The position numbers and the translations under genes are program-made. Of a DNA stretch of 64,000 bases, positions 3,671 through 63,505 are shown in pieces. The notes under the pieces were generated by a model that searched no databases, was not told the origin of the DNA, and worked only from the letters and a program-made list of their open reading frames with translations. Numbering within the stretch: the first letter of the stretch is position 1; each line of letters opens with the position of its first letter. The DNA comes from Alphaproteobacteria bacterium (GTDB lineage Bacteria; Pseudomonadota; Alphaproteobacteria; UBA7887): contig CBDCGL010000011.1 in NCBI GenBank assembly GCA_965216755.1, positions 3,040,001 to 3,104,000 on the forward strand. Direction: 5' to 3'.

Positions 3671-3763
3671 GTTCCGGTGACAGTTTACTAAATACACTAC
3701 ATTTTGTGCGCATATATTCCCAGGGCACACTATTTTGTGGTTCTAGTAATCTGTCACCGGAAC
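3671..3763. repeat. Dispersed inverted-repeat element, copy 1 (core 3675-3759, degenerate right arm)
   Basis: gttccggtgacagtttactaaatacac ... gtggttctagtaatctgtcaccggaac; 4 mismatches in 27 bp. Confidence 0.9.
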
Positions 3764-3778
3764 TACCACAACCGACGG

Positions 3779-4891
3779 CTAACCAACCGTCTGCGAAAGC
3801 CGCACACCAAGCACGTGGGCATCGCGCCCGATAACATGGCCAGACGATCCGGCGATCAACGGATCTGGCCCGTGCGCAATATGCGGGTTCCTGTTGGGGT
3901 AATCGAGCCGGCTCAAGAAATGCAACATGCAGTTGATGCGGGCGCGTTTCTTGTCTGAAGACTTGACGATTGTCCACGGTGCGTCAGCGGTGTCTGTGTA
4001 GAAAAACATCGCTTCTTTGGCTTCCGTATAGTCCTCCCACTTTTCAAGGGATGCTTGGTCGATGGGGCTCAGCTTCCATTGCTTCAGCGGATCTGTCTTG
4101 CGCGCCTGAAAGCGGCGAAACTGCTCGTCGCGTGTGACCGAAAACCAATATTTGAACAGCCGAATACCACTGTTGACCAACATCCGTTCCATTTGCGGAC
4201 ATTGGCGCATGAATTCCAAGTATTCGTTGGGCGAACAGAACTCCATCACCCGCTCGACGCCGGCACGATTGTACCAGGAGCGGTCGAAAAGAACGATCTC
4301 ACCGGCGGTTGGCAAATGCTCAATGTAGCGTTGAAAATACCACTGGCCCTGTTCCTGCTCGGTCGGTTTTTCCAAAGCGACGACGCGCGCGCCACGCGGA
4401 TTGAGGTGCTCCATAAACCTCTTGATGGTGCCGCCCTTGCCGGCCGCGTCGCGCCCCTCGAACAAAACGACGATCTTTTGCCCGGTTTCTTTGACCCAGC
4501 TTTGCACCTTGAGGAGTTCGGCCTGCAGTTCGCGTTTCCGCGCTTCGTAGATGGCGCGTTTCATGCGTGTTCGATAGGGATAGACGTCGCTTTGGAAATT
4601 CTCGCGTAGGCGCTGCGGATCATGGCGAATCTCAGCCAGAACATGCTGCACTTCGGCGCCATGGGCGTTCTCAAGCGCGGCTATGTCCCGTTTGGACTTA
4701 GACCGTCCCTTGGCAGCCGGCTTGCCGCGCGCCTTTGTGTTGCCGTTCGCACCCGCGTCAGCGCGTTGCTTCTTTTTCGGCGCGTCGGCTGTGTTCGCTT
4801 TTGTCGTCGCCGGTCGAACGGACTTGTCCGCCAGCTGCGTGATCTTCGCGCTCACGCCTGTATCGTTTGACAATTGATCATCTTGTGACAT
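3779..4891 (-). CDS. ppk2: Polyphosphate kinase 2
   Basis: FEGRDAAGKGG Walker A, LFDRSWYNRAGVERVM, PLKQWKLSP. Confidence 0.95.
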   Translation of the reverse strand: MSQDDQLSNDTGVSAKITQLADKSVRPATTKANTADAPKKKQRADAGANGNTKARGKPAAKGRSKSKRDIAALENAHGAEVQHVLAEIRHDPQRLRENFQSDVYPYRTRMKRAIYEARKRELQAELLKVQSWVKETGQKIVVLFEGRDAAGKGGTIKRFMEHLNPRGARVVALEKPTEQEQGQWYFQRYIEHLPTAGEIVLFDRSWYNRAGVERVMEFCSPNEYLEFMRQCPQMERMLVNSGIRLFKYWFSVTRDEQFRRFQARKTDPLKQWKLSPIDQASLEKWEDYTEAKEAMFFYTDTADAPWTIVKSSDKKRARINCMLHFLSRLDYPNRNPHIAHGPDPLIAGSSGHVIGRDAHVLGVRLSQTVG

Positions 4892-4971
4892 GGCTCGACT
4901 CGTTACATGGTCGGTTGACGGCGCGGCGTACCCGATCGCTTCGGCACGTCGCCCGCATCGCTATTGGTTAT

Positions 4972-5010
4972 TTCGTGAAGTTCATTAAATTTCATTAAAG
5001 TTCATTAAAT
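4972..5010. promoter_or_regulatory. 10-bp direct repeat array upstream of ppk2
   Basis: ttcattaaat ttcattaaag ttcattaaat, preceded by degenerate ttcgtgaag; period of about one helical turn. Confidence 0.5.
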
Positions 5011-5334
5011 CGGCCAGTTCAACGCGCGTCGCGCACGGTTGGGCAAAAAGATGCGTCCCGGCAGCCATGCGATTCGCTTTACCTGAGACGCGGGTGGCCG
5101 CACCGACATTGCTGTCGGCAATTCTAGCAATAACAACGCTTTATTTGCGACCCGGCCGATACCGCACCGGTTGATCCCAAATCTCCACTCACCCCTATGG
5201 CGACCGGGCGGCGTGTTACGGGGCATGGCGCCGTGGCGCCGGCACGCAATTCGGTGTGCTGGCGACGGCCGTCCGGTAACGGGGGCGGAGCTGCCCCGAT
5301 CGTCGGCGCCATCGGCATCTTGGAGGACCCGGCC

Positions 5335-5787
5335 ATGAACAAGCTTGCCGTTTGGGCGGTTGCCGTGGTGAGCGGCGCGCTTGCTGCGCCTGCCGCCGTC
5401 GATCGGTTCCTCGCCGCCGAGGACTGCGCCTTGTGTGCCCATCAACAGGTCTGCGCGCCGGAGACCTCGCTTGATGCCTGCGCGATTCAGGCGTTGCAGT
5501 TTTATGCCTGGCAGGGCGTGCAGGCGCGCACCCTGTCGGGCAATGATTTGGCCCGGTTTGTCGGCGAAACGCGCGTCGGCAAGATCGGTCGCAGTGTCGA
5601 TGTTGCGGTCTTCTTTTGGAAAGACAATGAGCCGCAAGACGGTGTCTTCGTCTTACTCGGCCACGTCGGCGCGGGCGACCAAGGCACAGTTATCATCGGC
5701 AAAAAGATGTTCTCCACCAGCTGCGTCTTCACCGACATTTGGGGTGCGCGCGGCTATGCAGAGATTGGTCAGCCCTATCGCAGCTAG
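5335..5787 (+). CDS. Hypothetical secreted protein
   Basis: GGAGG RBS before ATG 5335; signal-peptide-like N-terminus MNKLAVWAVAVVSGALAAPAA; followed by a terminator. Confidence 0.6.
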   Translation: MNKLAVWAVAVVSGALAAPAAVDRFLAAEDCALCAHQQVCAPETSLDACAIQALQFYAWQGVQARTLSGNDLARFVGETRVGKIGRSVDVAVFFWKDNEPQDGVFVLLGHVGAGDQGTVIIGKKMFSTSCVFTDIWGARGYAEIGQPYRS

Positions 5788-5839
5788 AACTCTCACGGAT
5801 CAACCTGGGTGACTCCCCTCCACCAAGTCACCCAACGCT

Positions 5840-5875
5840 GCGGGCGTGGACGCCCCGGGTCCACGCCCGCTTTTT
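5840..5875 (+). terminator. Rho-independent terminator
   Basis: 12-bp stem gcgggcgtggac/gtccacgcccgc followed by ttttt. Confidence 0.8.
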
Positions 5876-5905
5876 AGACAAGAATTAGAGGCGCGCGCCC
5901 ACGCT

Positions 5906-6553
5906 TCACCCGGTGGTTTGCGACCAAGCGCGCAAGCTCTCCAGGATCTTGGTCAAAATCGGTTCCATCGATGGACCCAAAGTTTCGTTGGCAATCGCTT
6001 GCTCAATCATCGATTCGATTTGCGGTAATGCTGCGACGACCATTTTGCCAAAAGCCGCTTTGCCGTCATCAGACAGACCCTGCACACCAGTGCCGATATC
6101 GTCAAACTTGGCCGCCAGACTGTCCAGTTCCGGTTGCACGGCCTCGGCGGTGCTGTCGACGCTTAGGCCGCTCAGCAAATTGGTCAAACCGCCGAGCGAA
6201 TCGGTCAGCTCCTGACCAAAATCGACGCCATTCGCGACCAACGCGGCGACTTGGTCGGTTGCGTCCGCGGTCGCCTGCGCGGCATCTTCAGCGACACCTT
6301 GAACCGAATCGGCGGCGTTTTCCGCCATGGTCTGGGTGGCGTCGACGGCGTCCTCGACCGCATTCTGTGTCGCCTCCGCGGCGTCTTCCGTTAATTCGGC
6401 GACCGACTCGACAGCCTGATCCGCCGCGCCGGCAATTTCATCGACTGCTTGATCGGTTTGTTCGGCCACATCCTGCTGTTCTTCGGGTCCTAAAAGGTAA
6501 TACCCAACCAAAACCACAACAACGACGACCAATAGGCCCGTAAGCCAACGCAT
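5906..6553 (-). CDS. Hypothetical membrane-anchored acidic, Ala-rich helical protein
   Basis: MRWLTGLLVVVVVVLVGYYLLG anchor, then 11-residue-like repeats (AEDAAEATQNA); GAGGGGAG RBS. Confidence 0.7.
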   Translation of the reverse strand: MRWLTGLLVVVVVVLVGYYLLGPEEQQDVAEQTDQAVDEIAGAADQAVESVAELTEDAAEATQNAVEDAVDATQTMAENAADSVQGVAEDAAQATADATDQVAALVANGVDFGQELTDSLGGLTNLLSGLSVDSTAEAVQPELDSLAAKFDDIGTGVQGLSDDGKAAFGKMVVAALPQIESMIEQAIANETLGPSMEPILTKILESLRAWSQTTG

Positions 6554-6720
6554 TGCACACTCCCCTCTTCTGTTTCGGGCCAGCCGCCAAGCCGGCGCCA
6601 GGCCAAATGCAACGTTAGTCCAAAGTCGGTCACAAGATGCGTGTTCCACGCCCCGCCGGACGGCGAATGGCGCCGCAAGGCGATGCCATGTGCTCAACTG
6701 ACCTCGGCGTCCGCCTCATA

Positions 6721-6760
6721 CGACACCGTCTTATCCGACACCGTCTTATCCGACATCGTC
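6721..6760. repeat. 15-bp tandem repeat (about 2.7 copies)
   Basis: cgacaccgtcttatc cgacaccgtcttatc cgacatcgtc. Confidence 0.75.
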
Positions 6761-7146
6761 GTCCAAGGTCGCTCTTTGCCACGCGCCATGCTTGCACGGT
6801 CAGCAACTTGGCGTACCCAATCACAACTCGCGCGGGTTGGCAAGATCGCCGGCGCTTCGAACGCGTGCTGTCATTTCCGACCGCGCGGCTCCCACCCTAG
6901 AGCAGTGTCCGACAATATTGAACCATTCTGCCGGAGCGCCAACGTCGCGCCGCGCCGCCCTTCGCGTGGATCGCCACGCCGGGCCGCAAACAGATCTGAT
7001 TCAATATCATCGGACACTGCTCTAGCTACCGAAGCGATCATGCACATATCCGTGTTCCTTGTCGCCAATGTGGACCATGATGATCGCCAAAGGGCGCGGA
7101 AAAGGGCATCAGGCCGAAAACAGGTCTCAAGTTAGCGGGCGGGACA

Positions 7147-8184
7147 CTATTTTGTTTGGTCTCCGGCGGTTATGCGCCGCGCGAGATCGAAAAAGCCGCG
7201 CTTGCGGTCCGAACTGATACGCCAATTGACCGGAACGCTTTGGTAGCCGCAGTCGAACGATTCGCCGTCCAACCGGTAATCGAAAAAACCCCAAGAGGCA
7301 AATTCGCTGACCGCCGCCAGGAAATTGTTGTCGGCTTCATCGAACCGGAAATGGTCGTCCTCGTTGAACAGGATCGGCATCGGCCGGTAGCCGGTCACCT
7401 GTCGGGTTTGGCGCACCATGGCGCGGATGGCCGCTGGCTGATCCACGCGATTTCCATGCAAGAGCACAAAGTCGCTGGCGGAGACCACGTTGCTTGTGGG
7501 GATCGTACCGCCGCCATAGCTGGTGCCGGCCAGCAAGCGTGCACCATCCCGTTCATGGCCCCGCACGCGCAAGATCAGTTCATGCACGCGCGCCGGCTTG
7601 AGAATCGGCTGTTCGTAACGGATGTCGCATTCATTGTTGATTTCGAGCAAGACGTGGCGGTAACGCTGCGCCGACAGCCACGCCACGGCATTGTCAACCG
7701 CTTGTACGATAGCGCCCTCGCTGGTGAAAACCCGTTCCTGGCCGAAATAGAACAGACCCAAGATGACGACCATGCCGAGATCGTCGGCGGCATCCAACAG
7801 GCGCGCCAGCCGCGCCAGATAGTCCGCGCGCAAATGGCCGTCCGGCGCGAAGGCCGAATTGGTCCAGGGCTGGGCCTTTGAATAGCCATAGGGACTGCCA
7901 CCTTGCAAATTCAGGGTGAAAGCACGCACGCCGTGGGCGGCCCAGCTCGGCATGGCGTCGATAAACGCGTTGGTGTTGCGGTCGGGATCCCAAATCCCCG
8001 TATCTGGATAGGCCCAAAGATGTCGGGTCGCCGGGTTGAGATCGTCAAATATCCCTTGAACCATGCGGGCGTTGAGCAACAACCCCTCAATCGGTCGACC
8101 CTGCCACGTAACGCCTGCGTATGTCGGTTGGCTGTTGACAAAAAAGCGCGCGCCGCGGATTTCCACGTGGGTTTTTCGGGTCAT
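7147..8184 (-). CDS. Uncharacterised glycoside-hydrolase-like TIM barrel protein (clan GH-A-like)
   Basis: LEINNEC (acid/base-like NE) and PILFNEDD (nucleophile-like E); GMVVILGLFY segment; start MTRKTH after GGGAGG. Confidence 0.6.
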   Translation of the reverse strand: MTRKTHVEIRGARFFVNSQPTYAGVTWQGRPIEGLLLNARMVQGIFDDLNPATRHLWAYPDTGIWDPDRNTNAFIDAMPSWAAHGVRAFTLNLQGGSPYGYSKAQPWTNSAFAPDGHLRADYLARLARLLDAADDLGMVVILGLFYFGQERVFTSEGAIVQAVDNAVAWLSAQRYRHVLLEINNECDIRYEQPILKPARVHELILRVRGHERDGARLLAGTSYGGGTIPTSNVVSASDFVLLHGNRVDQPAAIRAMVRQTRQVTGYRPMPILFNEDDHFRFDEADNNFLAAVSEFASWGFFDYRLDGESFDCGYQSVPVNWRISSDRKRGFFDLARRITAGDQTK

Positions 8185-8559
8185 GTCTGCGGCCTCCCGC
8201 TTACGCCGGTGCGTCGATATCACGCGTCGATTTCGGATCTTTGAGGTTTCATTGAAGATTCGCCCCAGTAACATAATCGTCTCAATGGTTTGCTAGAAGT
8301 TCTCCGTCATCGGTTGAGTCGAAATCGTGATCGTGCCAGCGACGACATTTGGTTACGCCTTGGCGCCGCTTAACCGTACACGCCGCGCCGCATAGAACGC
8401 CGTCGACACGCTAACAGCGTCGGCGGCGTCGCTCTCGCGGCACCCGGTGTGGCGTCGCGGGGGCCAGCCTTGCATCCGTGGCAGTTGTGCAAATCCTTCG
8501 AAAGCAGGCATTATCCGTGCCCCTGGGGCAGCGGACCATGATTGGTGCGGAGATCCAAT

Positions 8560-10485
8560 ATGACAATTGAAACTGAATGGCGCAGCTATGACGTGATCGT
8601 GGTCGGCTCCGGCGGCGCGGGCAGCGCCGCGGCCCATGCGGCGGCCGAGACCGGGGCCAAGGTGTTGGTCGTCGCCAAAGACCCGGTCGGTTGTTCCGAC
8701 ACCAAGATTGCCGAGGGTATTGTGACTGTGCGGGCCAGCGCGGAGGCCGACGATAGCGAAGACGCGCTTGCCGAGAATCTCCGTATCGCCGGCGGCGATC
8801 TACCGACGCCCGAAATCGCTGCTGCGTTTGCGCAAGATACCCAAGACGCCTACGACTGGATGCGGCGCCACGGCGTGCGCCCGGATGTCGATGATCGGAC
8901 GCATAAGCCGAAGGTGCTGCCGATTGCGCTTGGTGGTCACACCCACCGGCGCTCCGTTAGCCATCAAAACGGCGGCTTGGCGGTGGGCCATGCGGCGTGG
9001 AATGCGGTCGTCCAGGGCAAACGGATCGATTATTTGGAGGACGCATGGTTTCTCGATGTGATCACCGCGCCGGTGGGTGATCGCGGGGATGTGCGTGGCG
9101 GCATCGTCTACGACGCGGCGCGCGGTGTTTTTGTCGCGGTTCGGGCGCCGGCGGTGGTCATCGCCGCCGGTGGCTTGGGCACGATGTACTTCCCGAAAAC
9201 CGACACCATGCGCGGCAATACCGGCGATTCCTATGCCATTGCCGTGCGCGCCGGGGCCGATTTGGTTGATATGGAGCAGGTGCAGTTTTTGCCCTTTTGC
9301 ATGACCCATCCGCCGGCATATGAGGGATTATGCGCCGGCGAGCCCGTGACCGCCGGGTTTCTGGGTGTGCTGCGCGACAAAGACGGCAACGTGATACTGG
9401 ATAGCGTCATGTTGCGCACACGCGCCGAATGTTCCGCCGCGATTGTGCGCGCGGTCGCCGACGGGCGTGGCACGGAACGCGGCGGCTGCTATTTGGATTT
9501 GACCGGCAACGTCAAACTGCCGCGATCCGGCCGCTACTACGACCGATTTTTGCATACGTCATTAACCGGTATTATGGCCACGGTGCGCCAAGCCTGGGGG
9601 CGGAAGGCGGTCCGCTGCGAGGAAATGTGGGAAGTGCGACCGGGCGCCCACTACGCCATGGGCGGTGTGCGCGTAGATGCCGATGGGCGCGCCGCGCGTG
9701 ACGAAGGCGCGCGCGCCGTTGACGGCTTGTACGCGGCAGGTCAAGCCATGGGCGGCGTTTTCGGCGCCAATCGCTTGGGCTCGACATCGCTTTCGGAAGG
9801 GCCAATTTTTGGCGCGCGGGCGGGGCGCGCGGCGGCAGCGCGGGCACGGCAAACGCGCGCGGCTGCCGATGACGCGCCATTCGAAGCCAACCTGGCCAGC
9901 TATCGGTCGGTTCTTGGACGAACAGCCGACGCGGCCCCGGCACAGTTGGTCAAGCAGCTGCAGTCCGCCTGCTGGGAGGGCATAGGTCCGGCGCGAACCA
10001 AGGACGGCCTGGAGCGGTTTGTCGCGGCATTGGCCGACCTTCGCCAACGCGCCGATACCGCTGCTGTGTCCTCAGATGCGTTGTGGAACCAATCGTTTAT
10101 CGATTGGGTCGAACTGCGCAATATGCTCGACACCGCCGAAGCAGTGGCGCGTGCGGCCTATTCGCGCACGGCGTCGCTCGGCGCCCATATTCGGCTCGAC
10201 AGCCAGAAGACATCGACGGCCCTGGGCCACCCCTATTCCGTGATCGTGCGTCAGGGACCGAGCGATGCGATGATTGTGGCCCACGCGGCGCGCCAAAAGA
10301 CGCCATGGCAACGGCTGCTTCCCTATGTAATGGCGGATCGCAAACGCAAGGTCGTGCTGAAGGTCTTGCGTCTTTTGCCCGCAGCCTGGCAGGACCGTAT
10401 CTTGGAAAAACGCTATCGCAGCGTGATGGGGGAGATCAAACCGGCGCGGGCCGGTGATACGGTCGCTGACGGCGCCAATGCATGA
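8560..10485 (+). CDS. Succinate dehydrogenase/fumarate reductase-family flavoprotein (atypical)
   Basis: VVGSGGAG, AAGGLG, NTGD, DMEQVQF, HYAMGGV, GANRLGSTSL. Confidence 0.88.
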   Translation: MTIETEWRSYDVIVVGSGGAGSAAAHAAAETGAKVLVVAKDPVGCSDTKIAEGIVTVRASAEADDSEDALAENLRIAGGDLPTPEIAAAFAQDTQDAYDWMRRHGVRPDVDDRTHKPKVLPIALGGHTHRRSVSHQNGGLAVGHAAWNAVVQGKRIDYLEDAWFLDVITAPVGDRGDVRGGIVYDAARGVFVAVRAPAVVIAAGGLGTMYFPKTDTMRGNTGDSYAIAVRAGADLVDMEQVQFLPFCMTHPPAYEGLCAGEPVTAGFLGVLRDKDGNVILDSVMLRTRAECSAAIVRAVADGRGTERGGCYLDLTGNVKLPRSGRYYDRFLHTSLTGIMATVRQAWGRKAVRCEEMWEVRPGAHYAMGGVRVDADGRAARDEGARAVDGLYAAGQAMGGVFGANRLGSTSLSEGPIFGARAGRAAAARARQTRAAADDAPFEANLASYRSVLGRTADAAPAQLVKQLQSACWEGIGPARTKDGLERFVAALADLRQRADTAAVSSDALWNQSFIDWVELRNMLDTAEAVARAAYSRTASLGAHIRLDSQKTSTALGHPYSVIVRQGPSDAMIVAHAARQKTPWQRLLPYVMADRKRKVVLKVLRLLPAAWQDRILEKRYRSVMGEIKPARAGDTVADGANA

Positions 10486-11180
10486 AAGTTGAGCTGATCA
10501 GAGTGCGTGACGGCCAGGCACAAGCCGTCGCCTATGACTATCGACCACGTGTCGACGGCGAACGACCGATGGCCTTGGACGTGCTGTTACAGGCCCAAGC
10601 GACCACTTTCCCAGATCTCGCCTATCGCTATGGCTGCCGCAACCGCACATGTGGCATCTGCACGATCGATATCAATGGTCGGCCGCGGATCGCCTGCCGC
10701 GCACGGGTTCGCGAAGGTGATCGATTGAGTGCGCCGGCGACCTTGCCGGTGCTGCGCGACATGGTGTCGCGGCGCGATGGTATTGCGCGCCAGCTGCGTG
10801 GCCGTTTGCCCGATGGTGTGCGTGGCAACGATTTGAACACGGCGGCGCCGGCCGACTATCATGCCTTGACCGCCTGCATCGAGTGCTATGCATGCCTGGA
10901 CAATTGTCCCATGCATGCGCGTAATTTCGACAATGGCGCGGAACAACGCGACGCGGCCGATGCCTATCGGTGGGGCAATCCGTTTTCATTGCTCAAACTG
11001 CAACGCCTGCGTTTGGATCCGGTCGCGACGCCGGCCGAGAAAGCGGCGGCGTTGGAAGCGGCGGTTGATTTGGGCCTTTCGGTCTGTCGCGACTGCCCGG
11101 GTTGCAAATGCGGCGTCGGTATCGACTTGAAACGCAAAGTGATTAAGCCATTGGTCGACACGGCCTTTGCCGACGTTTGA
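10482..11180 (+). CDS. SdhB/FrdB-like iron-sulfur protein (atypical)
   Basis: [2Fe-2S] motif YGCRNRTCGIC...AC, CIECYACLDNCP, CRDCPGCKC; ATGA overlap with the flavoprotein gene. Confidence 0.85.
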   Translation: MKVELIRVRDGQAQAVAYDYRPRVDGERPMALDVLLQAQATTFPDLAYRYGCRNRTCGICTIDINGRPRIACRARVREGDRLSAPATLPVLRDMVSRRDGIARQLRGRLPDGVRGNDLNTAAPADYHALTACIECYACLDNCPMHARNFDNGAEQRDAADAYRWGNPFSLLKLQRLRLDPVATPAEKAAALEAAVDLGLSVCRDCPGCKCGVGIDLKRKVIKPLVDTAFADV

Positions 11181-11306
11181 TTGCGAAATTGCGCTCTATT
11201 CGGCGGCCGCGCCTTTTTGATGCCGCCAGGGGCCCGTATAACCGGCCGACCAATCGGGGGGTATTTCGCACGGCCGCGGGTCGTGATGGGTGACGCGCCT
11301 GGCTTA

Positions 11307-11405
11307 GGTATTTCGGTGACAGTTTACTAAATACACAATATATTGCGTATTATATGATATCTGATGCCTTACTTTGTGTATTTAGTAAACTGTCACCGAA
11401 ATACC
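11307..11405. repeat. Dispersed inverted-repeat element, copy 2 (core 11314-11398)
   Basis: Perfect 32-bp inverted repeat ggtatttcggtgacagtttactaaatacacaa / ttgtgtatttagtaaactgtcaccgaaatacc. Confidence 0.95.
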
Positions 11406-11503
11406 AAAATGTGGTCGCTTGCGTTTGTTCGCCGACACACGGTCGATTACACTGGCCGTGATGTGTCATTGACTTGTGAACACTCGGAATCGGCCTGCTC
11501 GTC

Positions 11504-12649: not shown

Positions 12650-12675
12650 ACCGCGTGCTGATCGCATAACAAAAG

Positions 12676-15055: not shown

Positions 15056-15077
15056 GTTGTGGCGGGATCAAAGATGG

Positions 15078-15211
15078 GTGTTACGGTGGTTACGGTGACA
15101 GTTTACTAAATATACCATATGTTGTGACTCACTGCTAAAGCCTACAACATACGGTATATTTAGTAAACTGTCACCGTAACTAGTAAACTGTCACCGTAAC
15201 CACCGTAACAC
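15078..15211. repeat. Dispersed inverted-repeat element, copy 3 (core 15093-15176) with duplicated right arm
   Basis: Long arms; tagtaaactgtcaccgtaac occurs twice (15161-15200); outer 9-bp units gttacggtg/caccgtaac reiterated. Confidence 0.95.
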
Positions 15212-15352
15212 ACCGTAGTCGGGCCGGTCGTCAGGCAGCATGTGCCCTTTGCGGGCTGGAATAGTGCGGTACAAAGCGATACCAAGATAGAGACCGCACG
15301 AGTCGGCGATGCCCGATAAGACCGCGTCAAACGGTCCACATGAGACACTAAC

Positions 15353-17735: not shown

Positions 17736-19037
17736 TGACCGACCTGAGAGATAGGTGACGTTTTGTACCGGACACATGGGTAACACTTTTGGCCGAATTC
17801 GTGGGGCCGGAGGTGTTGATGCCGTGGAAAGAGAGTTCGGTCATGGAAGAACGTCTACGTTTTGTCGCCCGCCTGTTAGAGGGCGAGCCAATGAGCGATG
17901 TCTGCCGTCAGTTCGGTATCTCGCGCAAGACAGGCTACAAAATCTACAATCGCTACAAGGAGCACGGGCTCGAAGCCCTCTGCGACCGCTCCCGCCGGCC
18001 GGTTCGCTATGCCAACCAATTGCCGGCACAGGTCGAAAGCCTGATCATCCGCTTCAAAAAGGAGAAACCCCATTGGGGCGCACGCAAGATCCGTGAGCTG
18101 CTCGTCCGCCGCCTGGCCGGGGATGTCCGCATCCCAGCCCAAAGTACCGTTCATGCCGTCCTCGACCGGCACGGCCTGGTCAAACGCAAAGGCCGGCCCC
18201 GCCGAAGAGCCAAAGGCACACCCCTGTCCGCTGGCACCGCACCCAATGATTTGTGGTGCACCGACTTCAAAGGCGAGTTCAGACTCGGCAACCGGCGGTA
18301 TTGTTACCCCTTGACCGTTACCGACCATGCCTCGCGCTTCGTCCTGATGTGCGAAGCTCTCGAGTCGACAAAGCAAGATCTCACTCTCACCGCCTTCGAA
18401 CGCCTGTTTGCTGAACGTGGCCTGCCCGCCGCCATCAGATCGGACAATGGCGTACCCTTCGCCAGCCCCAACGGTTTGTTCAATCTCTCCAAGCTCTCCG
18501 TCTGGTGGCTACGCCTCGGCATTCAGATCGAGCGCATCAAACCAGGCCATCCCCAAGAAAATGGCCGACACGAGCGCCTCCACCTTACTTTGAAAAAGGA
18601 AGCCACACGGCCGCCCGGCATGAACAGCCTGCAGCAGCAAGCACGCTTCGATGCCTTCGTTGACGAATTCAACACGGAACGACCCCACCAGGCCCTGGAC
18701 ATGAAACCACCAGACGAGGTCTACAAACCCTCAACCCGGCCCTATACCGGCGTCCCAGAGCTCGCCTACCCCTTTCACGATCGCGACATCCTGGTTACCA
18801 ATTGCGGCCGCATCTGCTTGCACCGCAAAAAAATCAATGTCTCAACCGTGCTCGCGGGGCAAAGGCTCGGCATCAAGGAAGTTGACGACGCCATTTGGCT
18901 CGTCAGCTTCATGCACTATGATCTCGGTTACGTCGATCTTGAACAGAGAACCCTGCAACCCCTCGACAACCCGTTCGGCGCGTGGTTGTCACCCATGTCT
19001 TAGGTACAAACTGTTACCTATGTCTCCGGGCTGGACC
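17736..19037 (+). mobile_element. IS481-family insertion sequence with 12-bp target-site duplication
   Basis: ctgcccgcagac on both flanks (17724-17735, 19038-19049); each end has two copies of an imperfect inverted motif (gacacatgggtaaca / tgttacctatgtctc). Confidence 0.9.
17819..19003 (+). CDS. IS481-family DDE transposase
   Basis: MPWKESSVMEERLRFV, HTH (GISRKTGYK), WCTDFKG, IRSDNG, NGRHER..TLKKE; uninterrupted frame. Confidence 0.95.
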   Translation: MPWKESSVMEERLRFVARLLEGEPMSDVCRQFGISRKTGYKIYNRYKEHGLEALCDRSRRPVRYANQLPAQVESLIIRFKKEKPHWGARKIRELLVRRLAGDVRIPAQSTVHAVLDRHGLVKRKGRPRRRAKGTPLSAGTAPNDLWCTDFKGEFRLGNRRYCYPLTVTDHASRFVLMCEALESTKQDLTLTAFERLFAERGLPAAIRSDNGVPFASPNGLFNLSKLSVWWLRLGIQIERIKPGHPQENGRHERLHLTLKKEATRPPGMNSLQQQARFDAFVDEFNTERPHQALDMKPPDEVYKPSTRPYTGVPELAYPFHDRDILVTNCGRICLHRKKINVSTVLAGQRLGIKEVDDAIWLVSFMHYDLGYVDLEQRTLQPLDNPFGAWLSPMS

Positions 19038-19055: not shown

Positions 19056-19131
<76 letters not shown>

Positions 19132-30437: not shown

Positions 30438-30734
30438 GGTACCGCCGCAAGTCGTTTTTCTGACGCCGATTCGGGCCGCAGCTGACCGCGCCAGCCGTCG
30501 ACAACGACAAACCCGATCGCCGATACCGCGCATCGCACGACCTTAATCTCTGAAAAGCAACGGATTGTCCGAACGCGGACCAAATGCGTCATCGCGCGTG
30601 CATCCGGGTCCATGTTATGATTCGAACAGCGGCCTGACCCAAAATATCGGGCTGGGGTCGGTCGCTCAATATATTGAAGAAAAAGGAGAATGCCAGGTTT
30701 TCGAAGTTGAACGCGCGGGCCCCTGGGTCGTATG

Positions 30735-30811
30735 TGGCGCGCCCGGGAAGATTCGAACTCCCGACCCCCAGATTCGTAGTCTGGTGCTCTATCCAGCTGA
30801 GCTACGGGCGC
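30735..30811 (-). tRNA. tRNA-Arg (ACG)
   Basis: GCGCCCGTAGCTCAGCTGGATAGAGCACCAGACTACGAATCTGGGGGTCGGGAGTTCGAATCTTCCCGGGCGCGCCA. Confidence 0.97.
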
Positions 30812-53963: not shown

Positions 53964-54146
53964 GGCAATCTCGTCATATCGTTGGCGACCGAGGGCCGCA
54001 TGATGGCGCGGCTTGGTCTTGCCCGCCGGTTTTACCTCATATGGGCGTAAAGCTTGAGATTTTCATGCGTTTGGTCGGCGCGCACAGAGCGGCGTTCGAC
54101 CGACGCCGCGACACGACCGACTTGCGCGCCACGGTCCTTCGTGTAT

Positions 54147-54165
54147 TGTATACTGTATACAGTAT
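54147..54165. promoter_or_regulatory. Palindromic GntR-type operator
   Basis: Overlapping palindromes tgtatactgtataca and atactgtatacagtat about 20 bp upstream of the GntR start. Confidence 0.65.
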
Positions 54166-54184
54166 TCATTCATGATGTTGTCGT

Positions 54185-55290: not shown

Positions 55291-55300
55291 GAGATCCTTT

Positions 55301-56725: not shown

Positions 56726-56731
56726 CTGATT

Positions 56732-57715
56732 GTGGCCCACGATCCCTCCGCCGGGCCGCCCGACGCCGATTTGCACGCCGCCGTCTTGGCCGGCAATATG
56801 CGCGCCATCGCGCGTCTGATCAGTCGCGCCGAATCCGGTGACGCTGCCGCCCGACCGGTGTTGGCGGCGCTTTATGGCGAGACCGGTCGCGCGCATATTG
56901 TTGGCGTCACCGGCGTGCCCGGCAGCGGCAAATCGTCGCTGGTACAGCAATTGGTGCATGCCTTGCGTTCCGACGGCCGCACGGTCGGGGTGCTGGCGGT
57001 GGACCCATCGAGTCCTTTCAGCGGCGGTTCTGTATTGGGCGATCGCATTCGGATGACCGAACATGCCGGCGACCCAGGCGTTTTTATTCGCAGCATGGCG
57101 ACCCGCGGCGCGTTGGGCGGTTTGGCGCGCGCTGCAATGGACGCAGTCGACGTCATGGATGCCGGCGGCTTTGACACGATCATTATCGAGACCGTTGGCG
57201 CCGGCCAAGACGAAGTCGATATTGTGCGCGCCGCACATACCACCGTGGTGGTCTCGGCACCTGGCTTGGGCGACGACATACAAGCGATCAAAGCCGGCAT
57301 TTTGGAGATTGCGGATATTCACGTGGTCAGCAAGTGCGACCGTTCCGATGCCAATAAAACCATTGTTGACCTTAAGGCCATGCTGGCGTTGAGCTTGGTC
57401 CTAGATTCGCGCGACCCATGGGCGACTCCGGTGGTGCCGACCAGCGCCGAAACCGGCGAAGGAATTGCCGACTTGCGCGAGACCATTGCGCGCCATCACG
57501 GTTACCTGATCGAAAGCGGCACGATCGCCGACCGCCGCCACGCCATCGCCGAAGCGCGGACTCTCAAGATCGCCGAAGACCTGGTGCGCCGACGACTGCT
57601 TGGCTCAACCGATGACCGCGCCCGAGATCTGGTGGCGCAAGTTGCCGCGCGCACCATCGATCCACACCACGCCGCGGCGCTATTGCTTGAACGTTTGTCC
57701 GAGGTATGCCCATGA
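56732..57715 (+). CDS. meaH: MeaB/MeaH G-protein chaperone of the B12 mutase
   Basis: GVPGSGKS, AVDPSSPFSGGS.LGDRIRM, ETVGAGQ, QAIKAG. Confidence 0.9.
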   Translation: MAHDPSAGPPDADLHAAVLAGNMRAIARLISRAESGDAAARPVLAALYGETGRAHIVGVTGVPGSGKSSLVQQLVHALRSDGRTVGVLAVDPSSPFSGGSVLGDRIRMTEHAGDPGVFIRSMATRGALGGLARAAMDAVDVMDAGGFDTIIIETVGAGQDEVDIVRAAHTTVVVSAPGLGDDIQAIKAGILEIADIHVVSKCDRSDANKTIVDLKAMLALSLVLDSRDPWATPVVPTSAETGEGIADLRETIARHHGYLIESGTIADRRHAIAEARTLKIAEDLVRRRLLGSTDDRARDLVAQVAARTIDPHHAAALLLERLSEVCP

Positions 57716-59412
57716 GCACCGACGAAACTGCGGCGACAAACGCGTCCTCTCCCTCGCTGTCGGAGACCCTCGCCACTTGGGAAAAGGACGTTGTCGCACC
57801 ATTCATCGCGCGCCAGCCGGAAACACAAGCTGACTATCGGACCGCGTCGGGCTTACCACTGCAGAGGACCTATACCGCATTGGATGCGGGTACAGCGCCA
57901 CCCGAGGATATCGGCCTGCCCGGCAGCTATCCGTTCACGCGCGGGCCCTATCCGACCATGTACCGCGCGCGCCCCTGGACCATGCGCCAGATCGCCGGCT
58001 TCGGCACCGGCGCCGACACCAATCGGCGCTTCAAATATCTGCTCGAACAGGGGCAAACCGGCCTGTCGACCGATTTCGATATGCCGACCTTGATGGGCTA
58101 TGACTCGGACAATCCGATGAGCGACGGCGAGGTCGGCCGCGAGGGCGTGGCCGTCGATACCATCGACGACATGGAAGCGCTGTTCGACGGCATCGACCTG
58201 ACCAAGATTTCAGTGTCGATGACGATCAATCCCAGCGCTTGGATTGTCTACGCCATGTTTATCGCGCTGGCGCGCCGGCGCGGCGACGACCTCCATGCCC
58301 TTTCGGGCACTATTCAAGCCGATATTCTGAAGGAATACATCGCGCAGAAAGAGTGGATCTATCCGGTTCGGCCGTCTGTGCGGCTGGTGCGCGACTGCGT
58401 CGCTTTTGGCGCCGCGCACATGCGGCGCTTTAATCCGCTCAATATATCCGGCTACCACATGTCCGAAGCCGGCGCGACCGCCGTGCAAGAAGCCGCGTTC
58501 ACCATCGCCAACACCATCGCCTATGTGGAAGAACTGTCGCGCGCCGGCTTGCACGTCGACGATTATGCACCGCGGTTGTCGTTCTTCTTTGTTGCTCAGG
58601 CGGATTTCTTTGAAGAGATCGCCAAATTCCGCGCCGTGCGTCGGGTTTATGCCAAGGTCATGAAAGAGCGATTCGGCGCCACCAAACCGGAAGCCATGCG
58701 GATGCGCTTTCATACCCAGACCGCGGCCGCCACATTGACCAAGCCGCAATATCAGATCAATGTGGTGCGCACGGCTTTGCAGGCCCTGGCGGCGATATTG
58801 GGCGGCACCCAAAGTCTGCATACCAATGGCATGGACGAGGCGTTCACGATTCCCACCGAAGAGGCGATGAAAATCGCGTTGCGCACCCAACAGATCATTG
58901 CTGATGAAACCAATGTGACATCGGTGGTCGACCCGCTCGGCGGATCCTATTTTGTTGAAAGCCTGACGACAAAGATGGAACAGGAAATCTTCGCAATTTT
59001 GGACAAGGTCGACGACATGGGCGGCACCATCCAAGCGATCGAAGACGGTTGGTTCCAGCGCCAAATCGCCGATTCGGCGTATCGCTTCGCGCTCGACAAG
59101 GCGCGCGGGGAACGGCCGGTTCTGGGCGTCAACAAATATGTCGAACCGGATGACATACCGGCGATCGAAACCCACCCGTATGATCCGAACACCCAGCAGC
59201 GCCAAATCCAAAATCTTCACCGGGTGCGGGCGCGCCGCGACAATGACCTGGTCGAACGTCTGCTTGATGAACTGGAAGCCACGGCGCGCGATGAGAGCGC
59301 GAATCTGATGCCGATCACCATCGATTTGGTCGACGCGCGGGCCTCCATGGGCGAGATTGTCGAACGCTTGCGCGGCCTGTGGGGCAGCTATCGCGAACAA
59401 CCGGTAATTTAG
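57712..59412 (+). CDS. hcmA: 2-hydroxyisobutyryl-CoA mutase large subunit
   Basis: WTMRQIAGF (Ile where MCM has Tyr and ICM has Phe) and STDFDMPTLMGYDSD; QSLHTN, ALRTQQI. Confidence 0.88.
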   Translation: MSTDETAATNASSPSLSETLATWEKDVVAPFIARQPETQADYRTASGLPLQRTYTALDAGTAPPEDIGLPGSYPFTRGPYPTMYRARPWTMRQIAGFGTGADTNRRFKYLLEQGQTGLSTDFDMPTLMGYDSDNPMSDGEVGREGVAVDTIDDMEALFDGIDLTKISVSMTINPSAWIVYAMFIALARRRGDDLHALSGTIQADILKEYIAQKEWIYPVRPSVRLVRDCVAFGAAHMRRFNPLNISGYHMSEAGATAVQEAAFTIANTIAYVEELSRAGLHVDDYAPRLSFFFVAQADFFEEIAKFRAVRRVYAKVMKERFGATKPEAMRMRFHTQTAAATLTKPQYQINVVRTALQALAAILGGTQSLHTNGMDEAFTIPTEEAMKIALRTQQIIADETNVTSVVDPLGGSYFVESLTTKMEQEIFAILDKVDDMGGTIQAIEDGWFQRQIADSAYRFALDKARGERPVLGVNKYVEPDDIPAIETHPYDPNTQQRQIQNLHRVRARRDNDLVERLLDELEATARDESANLMPITIDLVDARASMGEIVERLRGLWGSYREQPVI

Positions 59413-59417
59413 TCCGC

Positions 59418-60500
59418 ATGACCGCCGGCCTGCTCCTTCCCTATCTCGAGTCCCGCCCCCATGTGGGCGACGCCGCGCGCGGCCCGAGTTCGGCGGTGAT
59501 CGGCCGCGTGAGCCTCGGCCGCGGGGTGTCGCTCGGGGCGCTCGCGACGTTGCGCGCCGACGGCCATGACATCACCGTCGGCGACGACTGCATGTTTCTG
59601 GATCGCGCCACGGTGCATATCGCCGACAAGATCTATCCGGCGACCATCGGCCACCGGGTAACGGTCGGCCGCTTCGCCCTGGTCCATGCCTGCCGCGTCG
59701 ATGACGATTGTGTCATTGGCGATGCCGCCGTGATCATGGACAATTCCCACCTCGGCCGCGGCGCGGCCCTGGCCGCTGGCGCCTTGGTGCCGCCCGGCAA
59801 GACCCTTGCGGGTGGCCAGCTCTATGCCGGCAATCCGGCGCGGCCGGTGCGGACACTCAACGCCGATGACTTGGCCGCCTTGCGCCAAGGGTTGATCGCC
59901 GGCGATGGCGGCGAGATCACCTGCCCAGAGGCGCTGCCACCCCTGACCATGGCCCCCTACATTCCGACGGAGCGGGCCAGCCCACCGCTCTACTGGCTGG
60001 ACGAGCGGTTTCCGCGCATCGACCCTTTGGCCTATGTGGCGCCGAGCGCGGTCGTCGCCGGCAATGTGCTGGTTGGCCGCGATGTCAGTATTTGGTTCGC
60101 AACTGTGGTTCGCGCCGACAACGCGCAGATCGCGATCGGGCCGCGTAGCAATATTCAAGACAACACGATTATCGAAACCACCGCCGATCGCGGTTTGGTG
60201 ACCATCGGCTCAGACGTGACCGTCGGCCACAATGTGCGCATGGGCGCGTGTGTCATCGAAGACGAATGTTTGATCGGCATGGGCGCGGAAATGGCCGACG
60301 GCGTGGTGGTCGAACATGGCGCCATTGTCGGCGCGCGGGCATTCGTCGAGTCGGGCACAGTGGTCCGCACCGGCCATGTTTGGGCAGGTCGACCGGCGAA
60401 ACTGTTCCGCGAGGTCAAACCGGCGGAGCGTGCGTTTTTCACCCGCGGCAAAGAGGTGTATGTCGGATACACCCAGAACTACCGCATCCAGGCCGCCTAA
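59418..60500 (+). CDS. Tandem two-domain gamma-carbonic anhydrase-like (left-handed beta-helix) protein
   Basis: Two YrdA/PaaY-like units, each with RAD and G.PA..R motifs. Confidence 0.88.
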   Translation: MTAGLLLPYLESRPHVGDAARGPSSAVIGRVSLGRGVSLGALATLRADGHDITVGDDCMFLDRATVHIADKIYPATIGHRVTVGRFALVHACRVDDDCVIGDAAVIMDNSHLGRGAALAAGALVPPGKTLAGGQLYAGNPARPVRTLNADDLAALRQGLIAGDGGEITCPEALPPLTMAPYIPTERASPPLYWLDERFPRIDPLAYVAPSAVVAGNVLVGRDVSIWFATVVRADNAQIAIGPRSNIQDNTIIETTADRGLVTIGSDVTVGHNVRMGACVIEDECLIGMGAEMADGVVVEHGAIVGARAFVESGTVVRTGHVWAGRPAKLFREVKPAERAFFTRGKEVYVGYTQNYRIQAA

Positions 60501-60512
60501 GCACCTTTCTCT

Positions 60513-60604
60513 AATTCGGTGACAGTTTACTAAATACACCAAATATTGTATGCTGCAGTAATAATATACGAAATATAGTGTATTTAGTAAACTGTCACCG
60601 AATT
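60513..60604. repeat. Dispersed inverted-repeat element, copy 4 (core 60517-60600)
   Basis: Perfect 27-bp inverted repeat aattcggtgacagtttactaaatacac / gtgtatttagtaaactgtcaccgaatt. Confidence 0.95.
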
Positions 60605-60611
60605 CGTAAAC

Positions 60612-60920
60612 TCAATTATCATAGCCGAAAAGCCAGCGCATGGTGCCGTGATGGATATTGCGCACCGAATGTACTGCGCGGCGGGGAATGAATATTTCGT
60701 CACCCGGTTCGGCCACTACCGTGTCGTCGTCCACCGTCAGCTGCAAGCGGCCATCCACGACCGTCACCAACTCGTTGGTCTGGTGAACAAAATCCAGCCA
60801 GGCCTGACCCGGCGGATCGGTGAACATGTGGCACGAGTAGCCGCGCGCGCCCCATGCATCGGCGACCGCGCTTTGGTCGACCGGCGGCGCAAACACGCTC
60901 CGCGTGAGCAGCTTTGACAT
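60612..60920 (-). CDS. Cupin domain protein
   Basis: FVHQTNELVTV..G.L, PGDEIFIP...HSVRN. Confidence 0.85.
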   Translation of the reverse strand: MSKLLTRSVFAPPVDQSAVADAWGARGYSCHMFTDPPGQAWLDFVHQTNELVTVVDGRLQLTVDDDTVVAEPGDEIFIPRRAVHSVRNIHHGTMRWLFGYDN

Positions 60921-61029
60921 ATGTGTTTCCCAGCCTTGATGGTTTGCCGCGATCATGTGCCATCATACGCGTCGTTTGGCCCGTTGGTCATCACGAGTCG
61001 CAAACCGAAGAAATCGAGGGGAAGCCGCC

Positions 61030-62622
61030 ATGGCCGTGCGCCGCTTGCGTTTTTGGGGCTGGGGATATGAAGACGAACCAATCGACGCGGCCGAGGCGGC
61101 ACGCGTCGTCCAACATGTGCAACGGCGCCTGGCCGCACCTGATCTTGAGGAAGACCCGGCGCCACGCCTAGAGGATATCGAATTGTCGGCGCCGCGCTTA
61201 TCGCCACCGGCGAGCTTGCGCGACATCTGCGACACGGCACCGATCGAACGGGTCAGCCATACCTATGGCAAATCATTCCCCGACTATGTGCGAACGCTGT
61301 CGCGCGACTTCTCGGTCGCGCCGGACGTGGTCGCCTATCCACGTCATGAAGCCGATATTGTCGACCTGCTGGCGTGGGCCAGCGACACCCATGCGGCCGT
61401 GATCCCCTTCGGCGCCGGGTCGTCGGTGGTCGGCGGCGTCGAAGCCGCCGTTGGCGACGGTTATCGCGGCGTTATCACGATTGACTTGCGCCAGCTGGAC
61501 CAGGTTCTCGAAGTCGACGAAACCTCGCGCGCGGCGCGCATTCAGGGCGGCGTGCTGGGCCCGCATATGGATGCTCAGCTCAAGCCGCATGGCTTTTCCA
61601 TGCGCCATTTCCCGCAATCCTATCAATTCTCGACCTTGGGCGGCTGGATCGCGACGCGGTCGGGTGGTCATTACGCCAGTCTGTACACCCATATTGACGA
61701 CTTCGTCGAATCGCTACGCGTGGTCACGCCGGCGGGCGTCATCGAAAGCCGGCGCCTGCCGGGATCCGGCGCCGGGCCGAGCCCAGACCGTTTCTTCATT
61801 GGCTCCGAGGGCACTTTGGGCGTTATTACCGAAGCGTGGATGCGGGTGCAGAACCGACCGACGCACAAGGCCGCGGCGTCGATGTGGTTCTATGAATATC
61901 AACAAGCGTCGCGCGCCGTCCGGGCGATTGCCCAGGCCGGGCTTTATCCATCCAATTGCCGGTTGATTGATGCCGACGAAACCGCCATGACCCTGGCCGG
62001 CGATGGCAGCCGCCACCTGTTGGTGTTGGGCTTCGAATCGGGCGACCACCCAGTCGACGCGTGGATGGCACGCGCCATCGAATGTTGCCAGGATTTCGGC
62101 GGCGTCCGCGACGACTCCGAAGCGGCCGGCCAGTCCACGGGCGCCGGCGGTTGGCGCACCGCGTTCATCCGCGCGCCTTTCTATCGCAGCCACCTGATCG
62201 CCCGCGGCATCATTCACGACACGTTCGAGACGTCGATTCCGTGGGATCATTTCCCGGAATTCCATGCCCGTGTGAAAACCGCCACGGCTCAAGCCATCCA
62301 TGACGTGACCGGACGCGACGGCACCGTGACCTGCCGCTTTACCCATGTCTATCCTGATGGTCCGGCACCCTATTTCACGTTTCATGCGGTTGGCAAAAAG
62401 GGTGCTCTTCTCGAGCAATGGCGGGACCTGAAGCAGATCGCCTCGGATATACTATTGAAAGAGGGTGGCACGATTACCCATCATCATGCGGTCGGCCGCG
62501 ACCACCGACCCTGGTATGATCAGCAAAGACCGGACTTGTTCGCCGACGCCGTCCAAGCCGCCAAAACCAAGCTTGATCCCAAGGGTGTTCTCAACCCGGG
62601 CGTTTTGATCGATCCGGCTTAA
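61030..62622 (+). CDS. FAD-linked oxidase, alkyl-DHAP synthase (AgpS)-like
   Basis: FWGWG, PFGAGSSVVGG, HFPQS..FSTLGGWIATRSGG, GSEGTLG, THHHAVG, LNPG. Confidence 0.85.
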   Translation: MAVRRLRFWGWGYEDEPIDAAEAARVVQHVQRRLAAPDLEEDPAPRLEDIELSAPRLSPPASLRDICDTAPIERVSHTYGKSFPDYVRTLSRDFSVAPDVVAYPRHEADIVDLLAWASDTHAAVIPFGAGSSVVGGVEAAVGDGYRGVITIDLRQLDQVLEVDETSRAARIQGGVLGPHMDAQLKPHGFSMRHFPQSYQFSTLGGWIATRSGGHYASLYTHIDDFVESLRVVTPAGVIESRRLPGSGAGPSPDRFFIGSEGTLGVITEAWMRVQNRPTHKAAASMWFYEYQQASRAVRAIAQAGLYPSNCRLIDADETAMTLAGDGSRHLLVLGFESGDHPVDAWMARAIECCQDFGGVRDDSEAAGQSTGAGGWRTAFIRAPFYRSHLIARGIIHDTFETSIPWDHFPEFHARVKTATAQAIHDVTGRDGTVTCRFTHVYPDGPAPYFTFHAVGKKGALLEQWRDLKQIASDILLKEGGTITHHHAVGRDHRPWYDQQRPDLFADAVQAAKTKLDPKGVLNPGVLIDPA

Positions 62623-62641
62623 CGCGAAAGGGAGATACATC

Positions 62642-63415
62642 GTGGCACAATCAGCCGTTCGCCGTTCTGCCGTCAGCACCATGAGCGATGCTGAATGGGA
62701 TACCCGCGTCGCCTTGGCCGCCACCTATCGGGTGTTCGCCGAAATGGGCATGGACGATTTGATCTACACCCACATTTCGGCGCGTCTGCCCGACGCACCG
62801 GAGCACTTCCTTCTGAACCCATTCGGCCTGATGTTTGAGGAAGTGACGGCGTCGAACTTGGTCAAGGTCGATCTGGAGGGCACACCGGTAGACCCGGATT
62901 CGGCGCCCGTCAATCGCGCCGGCTTCGTGATCCACAGTGCCTTCCACGCCGGATGCCATCGGGCCAATTGCGTGATTCATCTGCATTCGGAAGCGGGCTG
63001 CGCCGTAGCGGCGCAAAAGGATGGCTTGCTACCCTTATCGCAATATTACTTTTTCAGCGGTGGCGGCGTCGCCTATCACGCCTATGAGGGGCTGGCGCTG
63101 GACGATGATGAAAAGGCGCGGCTTGTCGACGATTTGGGTGATAAGAACTGGATGGTGCTGCGCAACCATGGCCTGTTGACTGTCGGCCACACAGTCGCCG
63201 CGGCGTTCTTCCATATGTACAATTTGGAACGCGCCTGTCGGGTCCAGGTGGCCGCCCGCGGCGGTGGCGCCGCGATCGAACTGCCGGCCAAAACGGTTCA
63301 GGAGAAGACCCAGGCCCAGCGGCCGGTCAGTCTAGACCTTGGCGAATGGGGCCAACGGGAGTTGGCGGCCTGGATGCGCAAGTTGGACCGCGCCGGCAGC
63401 GACTACCGTCAATAG
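62642..63415 (+). CDS. Class II aldolase/adducin family protein
   Basis: IYTHISAR, NPFGLMFEEVTASNL, IHSAFH, IHLHS, LRNHGLL. Confidence 0.92.
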   Translation: MAQSAVRRSAVSTMSDAEWDTRVALAATYRVFAEMGMDDLIYTHISARLPDAPEHFLLNPFGLMFEEVTASNLVKVDLEGTPVDPDSAPVNRAGFVIHSAFHAGCHRANCVIHLHSEAGCAVAAQKDGLLPLSQYYFFSGGGVAYHAYEGLALDDDEKARLVDDLGDKNWMVLRNHGLLTVGHTVAAAFFHMYNLERACRVQVAARGGGAAIELPAKTVQEKTQAQRPVSLDLGEWGQRELAAWMRKLDRAGSDYRQ

Positions 63416-63421
63416 TGAATT

Positions 63422-63505
63422 CGGTGACAGTTTACTAAATACGCCATATCTAGTGTATGCACTAGGCATACCGCAATATGTAGCGTATTTAGTAAACTGT
63501 CACCG
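63422..63505. repeat. Dispersed inverted-repeat element, copy 5
   Basis: Perfect 23-bp inverted repeat cggtgacagtttactaaatacgc / gcgtatttagtaaactgtcaccg. Confidence 0.95.

Follow-up and report, generated by a model that had tools for sequence, protein, structure and literature searches.

Several described systems come close to the repeats reported here. The spacers of REPINs (doublets of repetitive extragenic palindromes [REPs] that form hairpins) are described as constrained by their length and by their capacity to form a hairpin (PMC3116915), and the function of RAYTs (REP-associated tyrosine transposases) is described as open (PMC5581495; Bertels et al. 2017). The TnpA-Y1 transposases of subclass 2.1, with the motifs NHVH, W[EQ], and Y..NP and a median length of 238 amino acids, are equated in PMC6006769 (Quentin et al. 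2018) with the TIRYTs (tyrosine transposases linked to terminal inverted repeats [TIRs]) of PMC3733652 (Di Nocera et al. 2013), in which TIRYT-linked TIRs are found to form families of dimers. NrdR is a nucleotide-sensing repressor that sits on the DNA as a tetramer loaded with dATP and ATP, kinks it by ~90 degrees at each of its boxes, and is released when dATP falls (PMC9110341); it binds pairs of boxes with spacers of 14 to 17 bp and needs both boxes (PMC12051234). Here, we describe a family of gene-less TIR dimers with putative NrdR boxes in an alphaproteobacterial genome (lineage UBA7887; assembly GCA_965216755.1). The family was encountered as five copies in a stretch of 64,000 nucleotides (contig CBDCGL010000011.1, positions 3,040,001 to 3,104,000), which is termed the window herein.

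TIR dimers and TIRYTs are already known and have been little studied. The questions why the length of REPIN-like elements is fixed, what benefit they bring to the host, and how RAYTs or TIRYTs are controlled come up in PMC3116915 and PMC5581495.

RESULTS

The dimer interior carries a tandem pair of NrdR-like boxes

The genome (G000; 5.0 Mb in 11 contigs) was scanned with the 21-bp arm shared by the window copies. All 132 matches (≤4 mismatches) fell on C11, the contig of 4.85 Mb, and made up 65 clusters, with 63 inward-facing arm pairs, which bears out the proposal of the first-pass annotation that the element is non-autonomous and present in many copies. The pairs were 84 bp (n = 40), 85 bp (n = 15), 79 to 83 bp (n = 6), or 90 to 91 bp (n = 2) in length, the last two being copies with short internal duplications.

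Counted from either end, positions 20 to 35 make up a 16-bp palindrome that is degenerate but conserved (110 half-elements). Within it, C4, A6, A8, T9, and G13 are 91 to 99% conserved and T11 is 78% conserved, while positions 5, 7, 10, and 12 are free; C4 and G13 occur together in 101 of 108 halves, and all six key positions occur in 63 of 108. This is the pattern of the published NrdR consensus, acaCwAtATaTwGtg (PMC4009431). Read from one end, an element consists of the outer end RTT-N, a 19-bp arm, a 16-bp box, a free spacer of 14 to 15 bp, the second box, and the second arm. The interior had been taken as free in sequence and constrained purely in its geometry; only the central 14 to 15 nucleotides (nt) turned out to be almost random (identity of 0.345 versus 0.325 after shuffling), and the fixed length goes with the box pair. 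Both boxes were found in 55 of the 57 copies of at least 84 bp and in none of the 6 shorter copies (P = 4e-7), which explains the fixed length of the element. The two boxes both score >3 bits in 52 of 54 copies and >6 bits in 48 of 55, and the box score drops as arm mismatches rise (rho −0.25, P = 0.008).

The inner box positions 25 to 35 showed no covariation, either between left and right or within a box, so that hairpin pairing is not the constraint and was dismissed as the reason why the inner part is conserved. Positions 21 and 24 have a weak left-right symmetry (P ~0.01 and ~0.02, uncorrected).

Element boxes and NrdR operators retrieve each other

A matrix derived solely from the inner box halves, outside the arms, was run on the chromosome with all elements masked. 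Among the 278 pairs that it found there, the pair upstream of dnaE ranked 1st (boxes 32 bp apart), that of the ribonucleotide reductase (RNR) gene nrdJ 2nd (31 bp), and that of nrdA 13th (33 bp). At 28 RNR loci of other genomes, the inner-half matrix beat all 20 shuffles in 8 cases, 7 of these with a spacing of 31 to 32 bp.

The opposite approach used a promoter matrix made from 46 boxes upstream of long NrdJ/NrdA genes in other genomes (33 of 57 loci, after shorter class II genes, RNRs of other types, incomplete loci, and a single unpublished genome had been left out; a pair was obtained from 23 of these 33). It agrees with the element matrix over the inner, non-arm half (r = 0.96) and gives the element boxes a median of 14.1 bits, compared to 14.4 bits for its own training boxes; 52 of the 54 distinct copies lie above the 95th percentile of their shuffled interiors. 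On the chromosome, the elements hold 60 of the 111 pairs scoring >6 bits, including the best 31, and the nrdJ pair follows at rank 32. In the elements, the boxes are 30 bp (n = 40) or 31 bp (n = 15) apart, corresponding to spacers of 14 and 15 bp. The host has a single, intact nrdR gene (C11:154291; D15, R17, and RRRR). Judging from these matches, the host NrdR probably binds the element boxes.

No convincing box pair was found at the 797-amino-acid class II RNR gene of the host. When motifs were sought de novo in the regions upstream of 28 RNR genes, the search settled on coding sequence, and its outcome was set aside.

Of the NrdR-like pairs outside the elements, the strong one of dnaE (C11:920930-920977, L268; 32 bp) lies 47 bp upstream of this gene, and a weaker one (C11:3886618, L269; 31 bp) lies 153 bp upstream of an smc gene. 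Right after the NrdR pair upstream of nrdA, at C11 ~1812810-1812845, there are three 9-mers, which we take to be DnaA-box-like. In the window, an intergenic pair outside the elements is located at 30637-30680 (27 bp spacing, 11.6 bits minimum), near a tRNA gene (30738-30811) that is the second one in the window.

A single TIRYT gene is enclosed by two elements

The first-pass annotation had proposed an HUH/RAYT transposase that acts in trans and had suggested looking for a Y1/HUH gene flanked by the same arms. The single match to PF01797 (Y1_Tnp) above the cutoff in the genome is such a gene (C11:3428737-3429408; 223 amino acids), enclosed by two elements (C11:3428625 and 3429426), one 28 bp upstream and one 17 bp downstream; tblastn did not find a second copy in the genome. 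Its motifs NHVH, WQ, and Y..NP fit TnpA-Y1 subclass 2.1 (compared by eye with Table 1 of PMC6006769). The element arm agrees with the GGGGWSAS-type TIR motif at 7 of 8 positions and lacks the GTAG tag, and exact variants of this motif were found in the flanks of homologous transposase genes elsewhere. The family therefore very probably belongs to the TIR/TIRYT branch (TnpA-Y1 subclass 2.1, RAYT group 1) and not to the classical REPINs with GTAG-tagged REPs, so that the proposed class of enzyme stands and its assignment to the REPIN type does not. A sigma-70 scan gave no promoter-like site upstream of the transposase gene on its strand.

A scan of genome contigs for transposase homologues kept 79 loci. 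Among the 37 whose flanks were viewed, most of the closer homologues are flanked by related single arms, often stuttered. Dimers likewise flank homologues in a metagenomic locus (L098), in genome G107, and in family relatives.

The transposase cassette is situated in an island-like stretch (C11:3424709-3431003) with integrase-like frames on either side, as judged by eye. At several other loci (L018, L024, L026, L034, L043, and others), telomere-like stutters were seen, i.e., many short tandem recopies of the outer TIR end beside the TIRYT genes of several organisms.

Related dimers elsewhere mostly lack the boxes

Related-arm elements from metagenomes and other genomes (55 distinct elements of 75 to 95 bp) served as a comparison set; 3 of these 55 have a box pair >6 bits (all at 29 bp), compared to 48 of 55 here. 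Of 400 genomes of the class, no more than 2 have paired arms, and nine genomes with close TIRYT homologues have no exact paired arms. TIRYTs that are 66 to 71% identical serve arms and dimers without boxes.

Three groups of relatives are informative. In an 82-bp metagenomic family (L097-L157), near-identical interiors are found at different sites, so that copying of whole elements happens in this group. Genome G107 (L225-L232) carries eight dimers with near-identical arms around unrelated GC-rich interiors (75 to 80 bp in total), one of them beside a TIRYT gene; the other 3 of the 4 genomes of its family gave none. The third group is an 83-bp metagenomic sister family (L098-L163), in which box positions 5 and 7 are fixed, whereas they are free here, as in NrdR boxes.

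Copies lie mostly between convergent genes

Gene neighborhoods are based on simple gene calls (4,131 genes). Gaps between convergent genes hold 45 of the 63 copies, compared to 222 of 1,814 intergenic regions of at least 100 bp (P = 7e-26), and 51 of 63 copies have a stop codon no more than 40 nt away. Only 10 of 63 are within 120 bp of a start codon, that of the transposase gene being one. Overlap with the promoter of a regulated gene, as in NrdR operators, is therefore not the rule in this family. The gene calls also place 4 of the 5 window copies between convergent 3′ ends, as had been read from the sequence, and Pfam upholds the names given to their neighbors (kinase/PPK2, methyltransferase/PHO4, hexapeptide/cupin, and aldolase/Sel1). 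The fifth, non-convergent copy is flanked by a 2Fe-2S gene and a PhyH gene.

Possible traces of movement

Outside one pair, the interiors of nearest neighbors are 60 to 74% alike. That pair is a 2,392-bp segment present twice (C11:4348606-4350997 and C11:4460219-4462610) in inverted orientation, 110 kb apart, with 2 mismatches (99.9%). The segment bears a TadA/CpaF-like ATPase gene, one of its ends coincides exactly with an element's outer end, and at the new site three bases (ATT) are repeated at the far junction. It looks like a recent one-ended transfer that began at the end of an element, as a single event. Two identical copies of the element are also found in a tandem duplication of 212 bp.

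Four sequencing runs of one study, possibly the source, gave contigs that agree with the window and end at the arms; no joint that skips a whole element was seen among the 15 of 40 joints listed. No RNA run was among the matching runs listed. Capture of the interior from local flanks was considered and is unsupported: the longest word shared by an interior and its own flanks has a mean of 7.7, compared to 7.2 for the flanks of other copies.

Ends and window copies

In the window, the 21-bp arm was matched 10 times at ≤3 mismatches and never in 100 shuffles, which confirms the five cores at the coordinates and lengths first assigned to them (Table 1). That all five share the arm needs qualifying for two of them: the right arm of element 1 is divergent, and element 3, whose two main arms have one mismatch each, carries an additional third arm. 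The arm is real and was drawn too short, as the conserved end (RTT plus one variable base) runs ~4 nt farther outward. When folded, all five window elements form long hairpins in which arm pairs with arm, and 0 of 200 shuffles are as stable.

No direct target duplication was found around ordinary copies, in agreement with the earlier description. Copy-specific inverted extensions of at least 7 nt flank 12 of 63 elements (0.4 expected), and stutter copies of the element end occur in 43 of 126 flanks, compared to 2.8% of control sites. The elements have no match in Rfam, and viral contigs gave 0 matches. Two further arm hits are relics with a decayed left arm; one (C11:2870878-2870962) has lost most of this arm and kept both boxes (8.5 and 12.7 bits). 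Single arm matches at C11:4024 and C11:3964041 (4 mismatches, identical context) were taken as chance.

TABLE 1 Dimers and NrdR-like boxes in the window (window positions; scores in bits; a dot marks a feature without strand)
Feature	Position	Strand	Remarks
Element 1	3671..3763	.	85-bp core (3675-3759) with the 4-nt outer ends; 4 mismatches in right arm
Element 1 box 1	3694..3709	.	18.3 bits
Element 1 box 2	3725..3740	.	11.3 bits; 31 bp after box 1
Element 2 core	11314..11398	.	85 bp; flanking genes codirectional
Element 2 box 1	11333..11348	.	19.2 bits
Element 2 box 2	11364..11379	.	4.1 bits (weak); 31 bp after box 1
Element 3 core	15093..15176	.	84 bp; end stutter copies on both sides, ~15078-15212
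Element 3 extra (third) arm	15176..15196	-	2 mismatches
Element 3 box 1	15112..15127	.	17.0 bits
Element 3 box 2	15142..15157	.	12.9 bits; 30 bp after box 1
Element 4 core	60517..60600	.	84 bp
Element 4 box 1	60536..60551	.	18.2 bits
Element 4 box 2	60566..60581	.	18.3 bits; 30 bp after box 1
Element 5 core	63422..63505	.	84 bp
Element 5 box 1	63441..63456	.	14.9 bits
Element 5 box 2	63471..63486	.	13.9 bits; 30 bp after box 1

Other repeats were observed close to elements. Just before element 1, a piece of the kinase gene forms a 124-bp direct repeat (window positions 2700-2823 and 3532-3655; 81% alike), with a third relative at C11:4574106. A different repeat of ~319 bp with >10 copies (C11:726696-727014) starts 20 bp from the element at C11:726593. 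A transposase-like frame of 404 amino acids in the window (17789-19003), presumably IS481-like, adjoins a tRNA gene at 19059-19131.

DISCUSSION

We favor the explanation, at a probability of roughly 60%, that these repeats are gene-less TIR dimers served in trans by the sole TIRYT of the genome and that they have gained a complete tandem NrdR operator in this lineage. As its function, we prefer, at somewhat less than even odds, a gate formed by NrdR. Y1 transposases act on single strands, and NrdR leaves the DNA when dATP falls; it is from these two properties that we infer it. When dATP is high and replication is slow, the tetramer of NrdR carrying dATP and ATP would bind and kink the duplex at both boxes, and the arms would thereby be kept as duplex, out of reach of the single-strand-acting transposase. 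NrdR bound to the copy 28 bp upstream of the start codon would in addition repress the transposase gene. Replication would lower dATP, NrdR would leave, and the arms could then fold back on the single-stranded DNA of the fork and be cut and rejoined. Boxed copies may have been tolerated better or may have spread better than box-less ones (57 versus 6). The opposite sign, with NrdR as a cofactor whose kinks bring the arms together, fits equally well. It is conceivable, at somewhat less than even odds, that NrdR kinks set the length of the element, that the dATP pool switches its transposition, and that the ~55 operators reshape the control of DNA precursors.

Several observations weigh against this explanation. 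The boxes of the promoter matrix were picked by the published consensus with C4 and G13 required, so that these columns are fixed by selection. Among the 23 natural operator pairs, spacings of 31 bp (13 pairs), 32 bp (8), 33 bp (1), and 19 bp (1) were found and the 30-bp spacing that is most frequent in the elements not once; in Table 5 of PMC12051234, a 14-bp spacer is bound 2- to 13-fold more weakly than one of 15 bp by four NrdRs. Speculatively, the spacing, one base short, could balance the lesser length of the sister dimers against the NrdR optimum. Of 16 family relatives, 15 gave no dnaE pair, and the pair of the remaining one is weak. In the 83-bp sister family, the first nine box positions are almost fixed and G13 is present in 9 of 20 halves, with no full boxes; few steps would lead from there to a full box, but the match is then in part an inherited one. 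An ancestral arm that supplied the first nine positions would mean that few changes were needed. The boxed form is known from one genome, and none of 400 other genomes of the phylum has boxed dimers with generic arms. The six box-less copies persist, which indicates that the boxes are not essential. As to the enzyme, the transposase scores 68.1 bits with the RAYT model NF047646 of NCBIfam, below the cutoff of 80.

Mobility, as claimed for the element by the first-pass annotation, would go with the transposase gene between two copies; two of its expected signs are missing and count against our explanation as well. The search for empty sites found none (2 of 40 relatives from other genera have variant arms only, and 0 of 22 members of the order have the paired pattern), and there are no young copies other than the two segmental duplicates, which leaves ongoing movement of bare elements as a possibility.

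The main rival is co-option by the host: true NrdR sites would be kept in old, largely immobile copies, and the ~55 sites would serve as decoys that buffer RNR repression or set its threshold, as deoxynucleotide-dependent roadblocks where two genes converge, or as nodes at which DNA is bent. We regard this as unlikely on balance, and it is favored by the saturated spacers, as a central spacer near saturation and interiors that are unlike except in one duplicate pair argue for long residence with selection in place. The relic with both boxes and a lost left arm speaks for it as well, and so does the position of most copies between convergent genes, close to stop codons; however, such placement would be expected of tolerated insertions anyway, and the gaps between convergent genes gave no 30-bp pair that lacks arms. 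Moreover, the arms are 98.8% intact, which decoys would not need, and box scores fall together with the arms. Still less probable in our view is that the palindromes merely resemble NrdR boxes and are an inner site for the TIRYT or for another host protein that arose by extension of the ancestral arm. The one-base-short spacing and the sister elements, which already have the first nine positions and in some cases G13, would be accounted for in this way, but the presence of two boxes at an NrdR-compatible distance would not, nor would the retrieval of the nrdJ and nrdA promoters by the inner-half matrix and its success with 31- to 32-bp pairs at 7 of 28 RNR loci elsewhere. A site for the TIRYT itself is further opposed by the similar TIRYTs that work with box-less arms and dimers, and the free positions 5 and 7 are those of NrdR boxes and not of the sister family.

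Two further explanations concern how the copies arose, and both appear very improbable. [quoted passage not shown] Alternatively, two arms might have been placed around local DNA in situ, with no movement of the copies as units, as the unrelated interiors of all eight G107 dimers and the lack of young bare copies here would allow. This would call for an implausible ~55 preexisting operator pairs between convergent genes, the interiors are no closer to their own flanks than to others, and the 82-bp metagenomic family copies whole elements.

If NrdR does bind these dimers, a mobile repeat has multiplied the binding sites of a regulon more than 10-fold, the real operators, three or four in number, are far fewer than the ~55 added by it, and a mobile element might be under direct control of the nucleotide pool. 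It would also define an evolutionary route from an AT-rich transposon arm to a repressor site, and the presence of NrdR sites may tie the activity of the element to DNA replication. The spacer can be read here as the two-box operator of a repressor with a known ligand, geometry, and spacer tolerance. The literature searched, with thin coverage of subscription journals and with figures and supplements outside its scope, contains no report of NrdR boxes in REPINs or MITEs.

Sites for host factors in mobile DNA are a familiar feature, such as the IHF sites in the bacterial interspersed mosaic elements of Escherichia coli and at the ends of IS10 and IS1 or the DnaA and Fis sites in the ends of IS50. 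The dimers share with them a site for a DNA-bending host protein between or beside the ends of the element and differ in that the protein would be a nucleotide-sensing repressor whose two-box geometry sets the length of the element. With the TIRtrons and TIRYTs (PMC3733652, PMC6006769, and PMC5581495), they have in common a single-copy Y1/HUH gene, long flanking TIRs of the GGGGWSAS type, and moderately abundant gene-less TIR dimers without a GTAG tag; here, in contrast, the gene is enclosed by whole dimers and not by single arms, and the dimer interior is a tandem NrdR-like operator at a fixed length of 84 to 85 bp. Such an interior is not mentioned in the accessible text of these three papers, and Figure 9 of PMC3733652 may list this arm. 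REPINs (PMC3116915; Bertels and Rainey 2011) likewise have two inverted ends and a poorly conserved spacer of conserved length, are extragenic, form a hairpin when single-stranded, and have a RAYT-like gene beside copies, whereas the arms here are neither palindromic REPs nor tagged with GTAG. The REPIN spacer is described as limited by its length and by its ability to form a hairpin, with changes that compensate each other, whereas the interior here has a protein-binding consensus and no covariation. From the NrdR operators of RNR promoters (PMC9110341, PMC12051234, and PMC4009431), finally, the dimers differ in their spacers (14 to 15 bp, compared to 15 to 16 bp) and in that a mobile repeat carries them in ~55 copies, for the most part at the 3′ ends of genes instead of at promoters; both have the same 16-bp palindrome in boxes about three helical turns apart, and the boxes of the elements score equal to those of the real operators.

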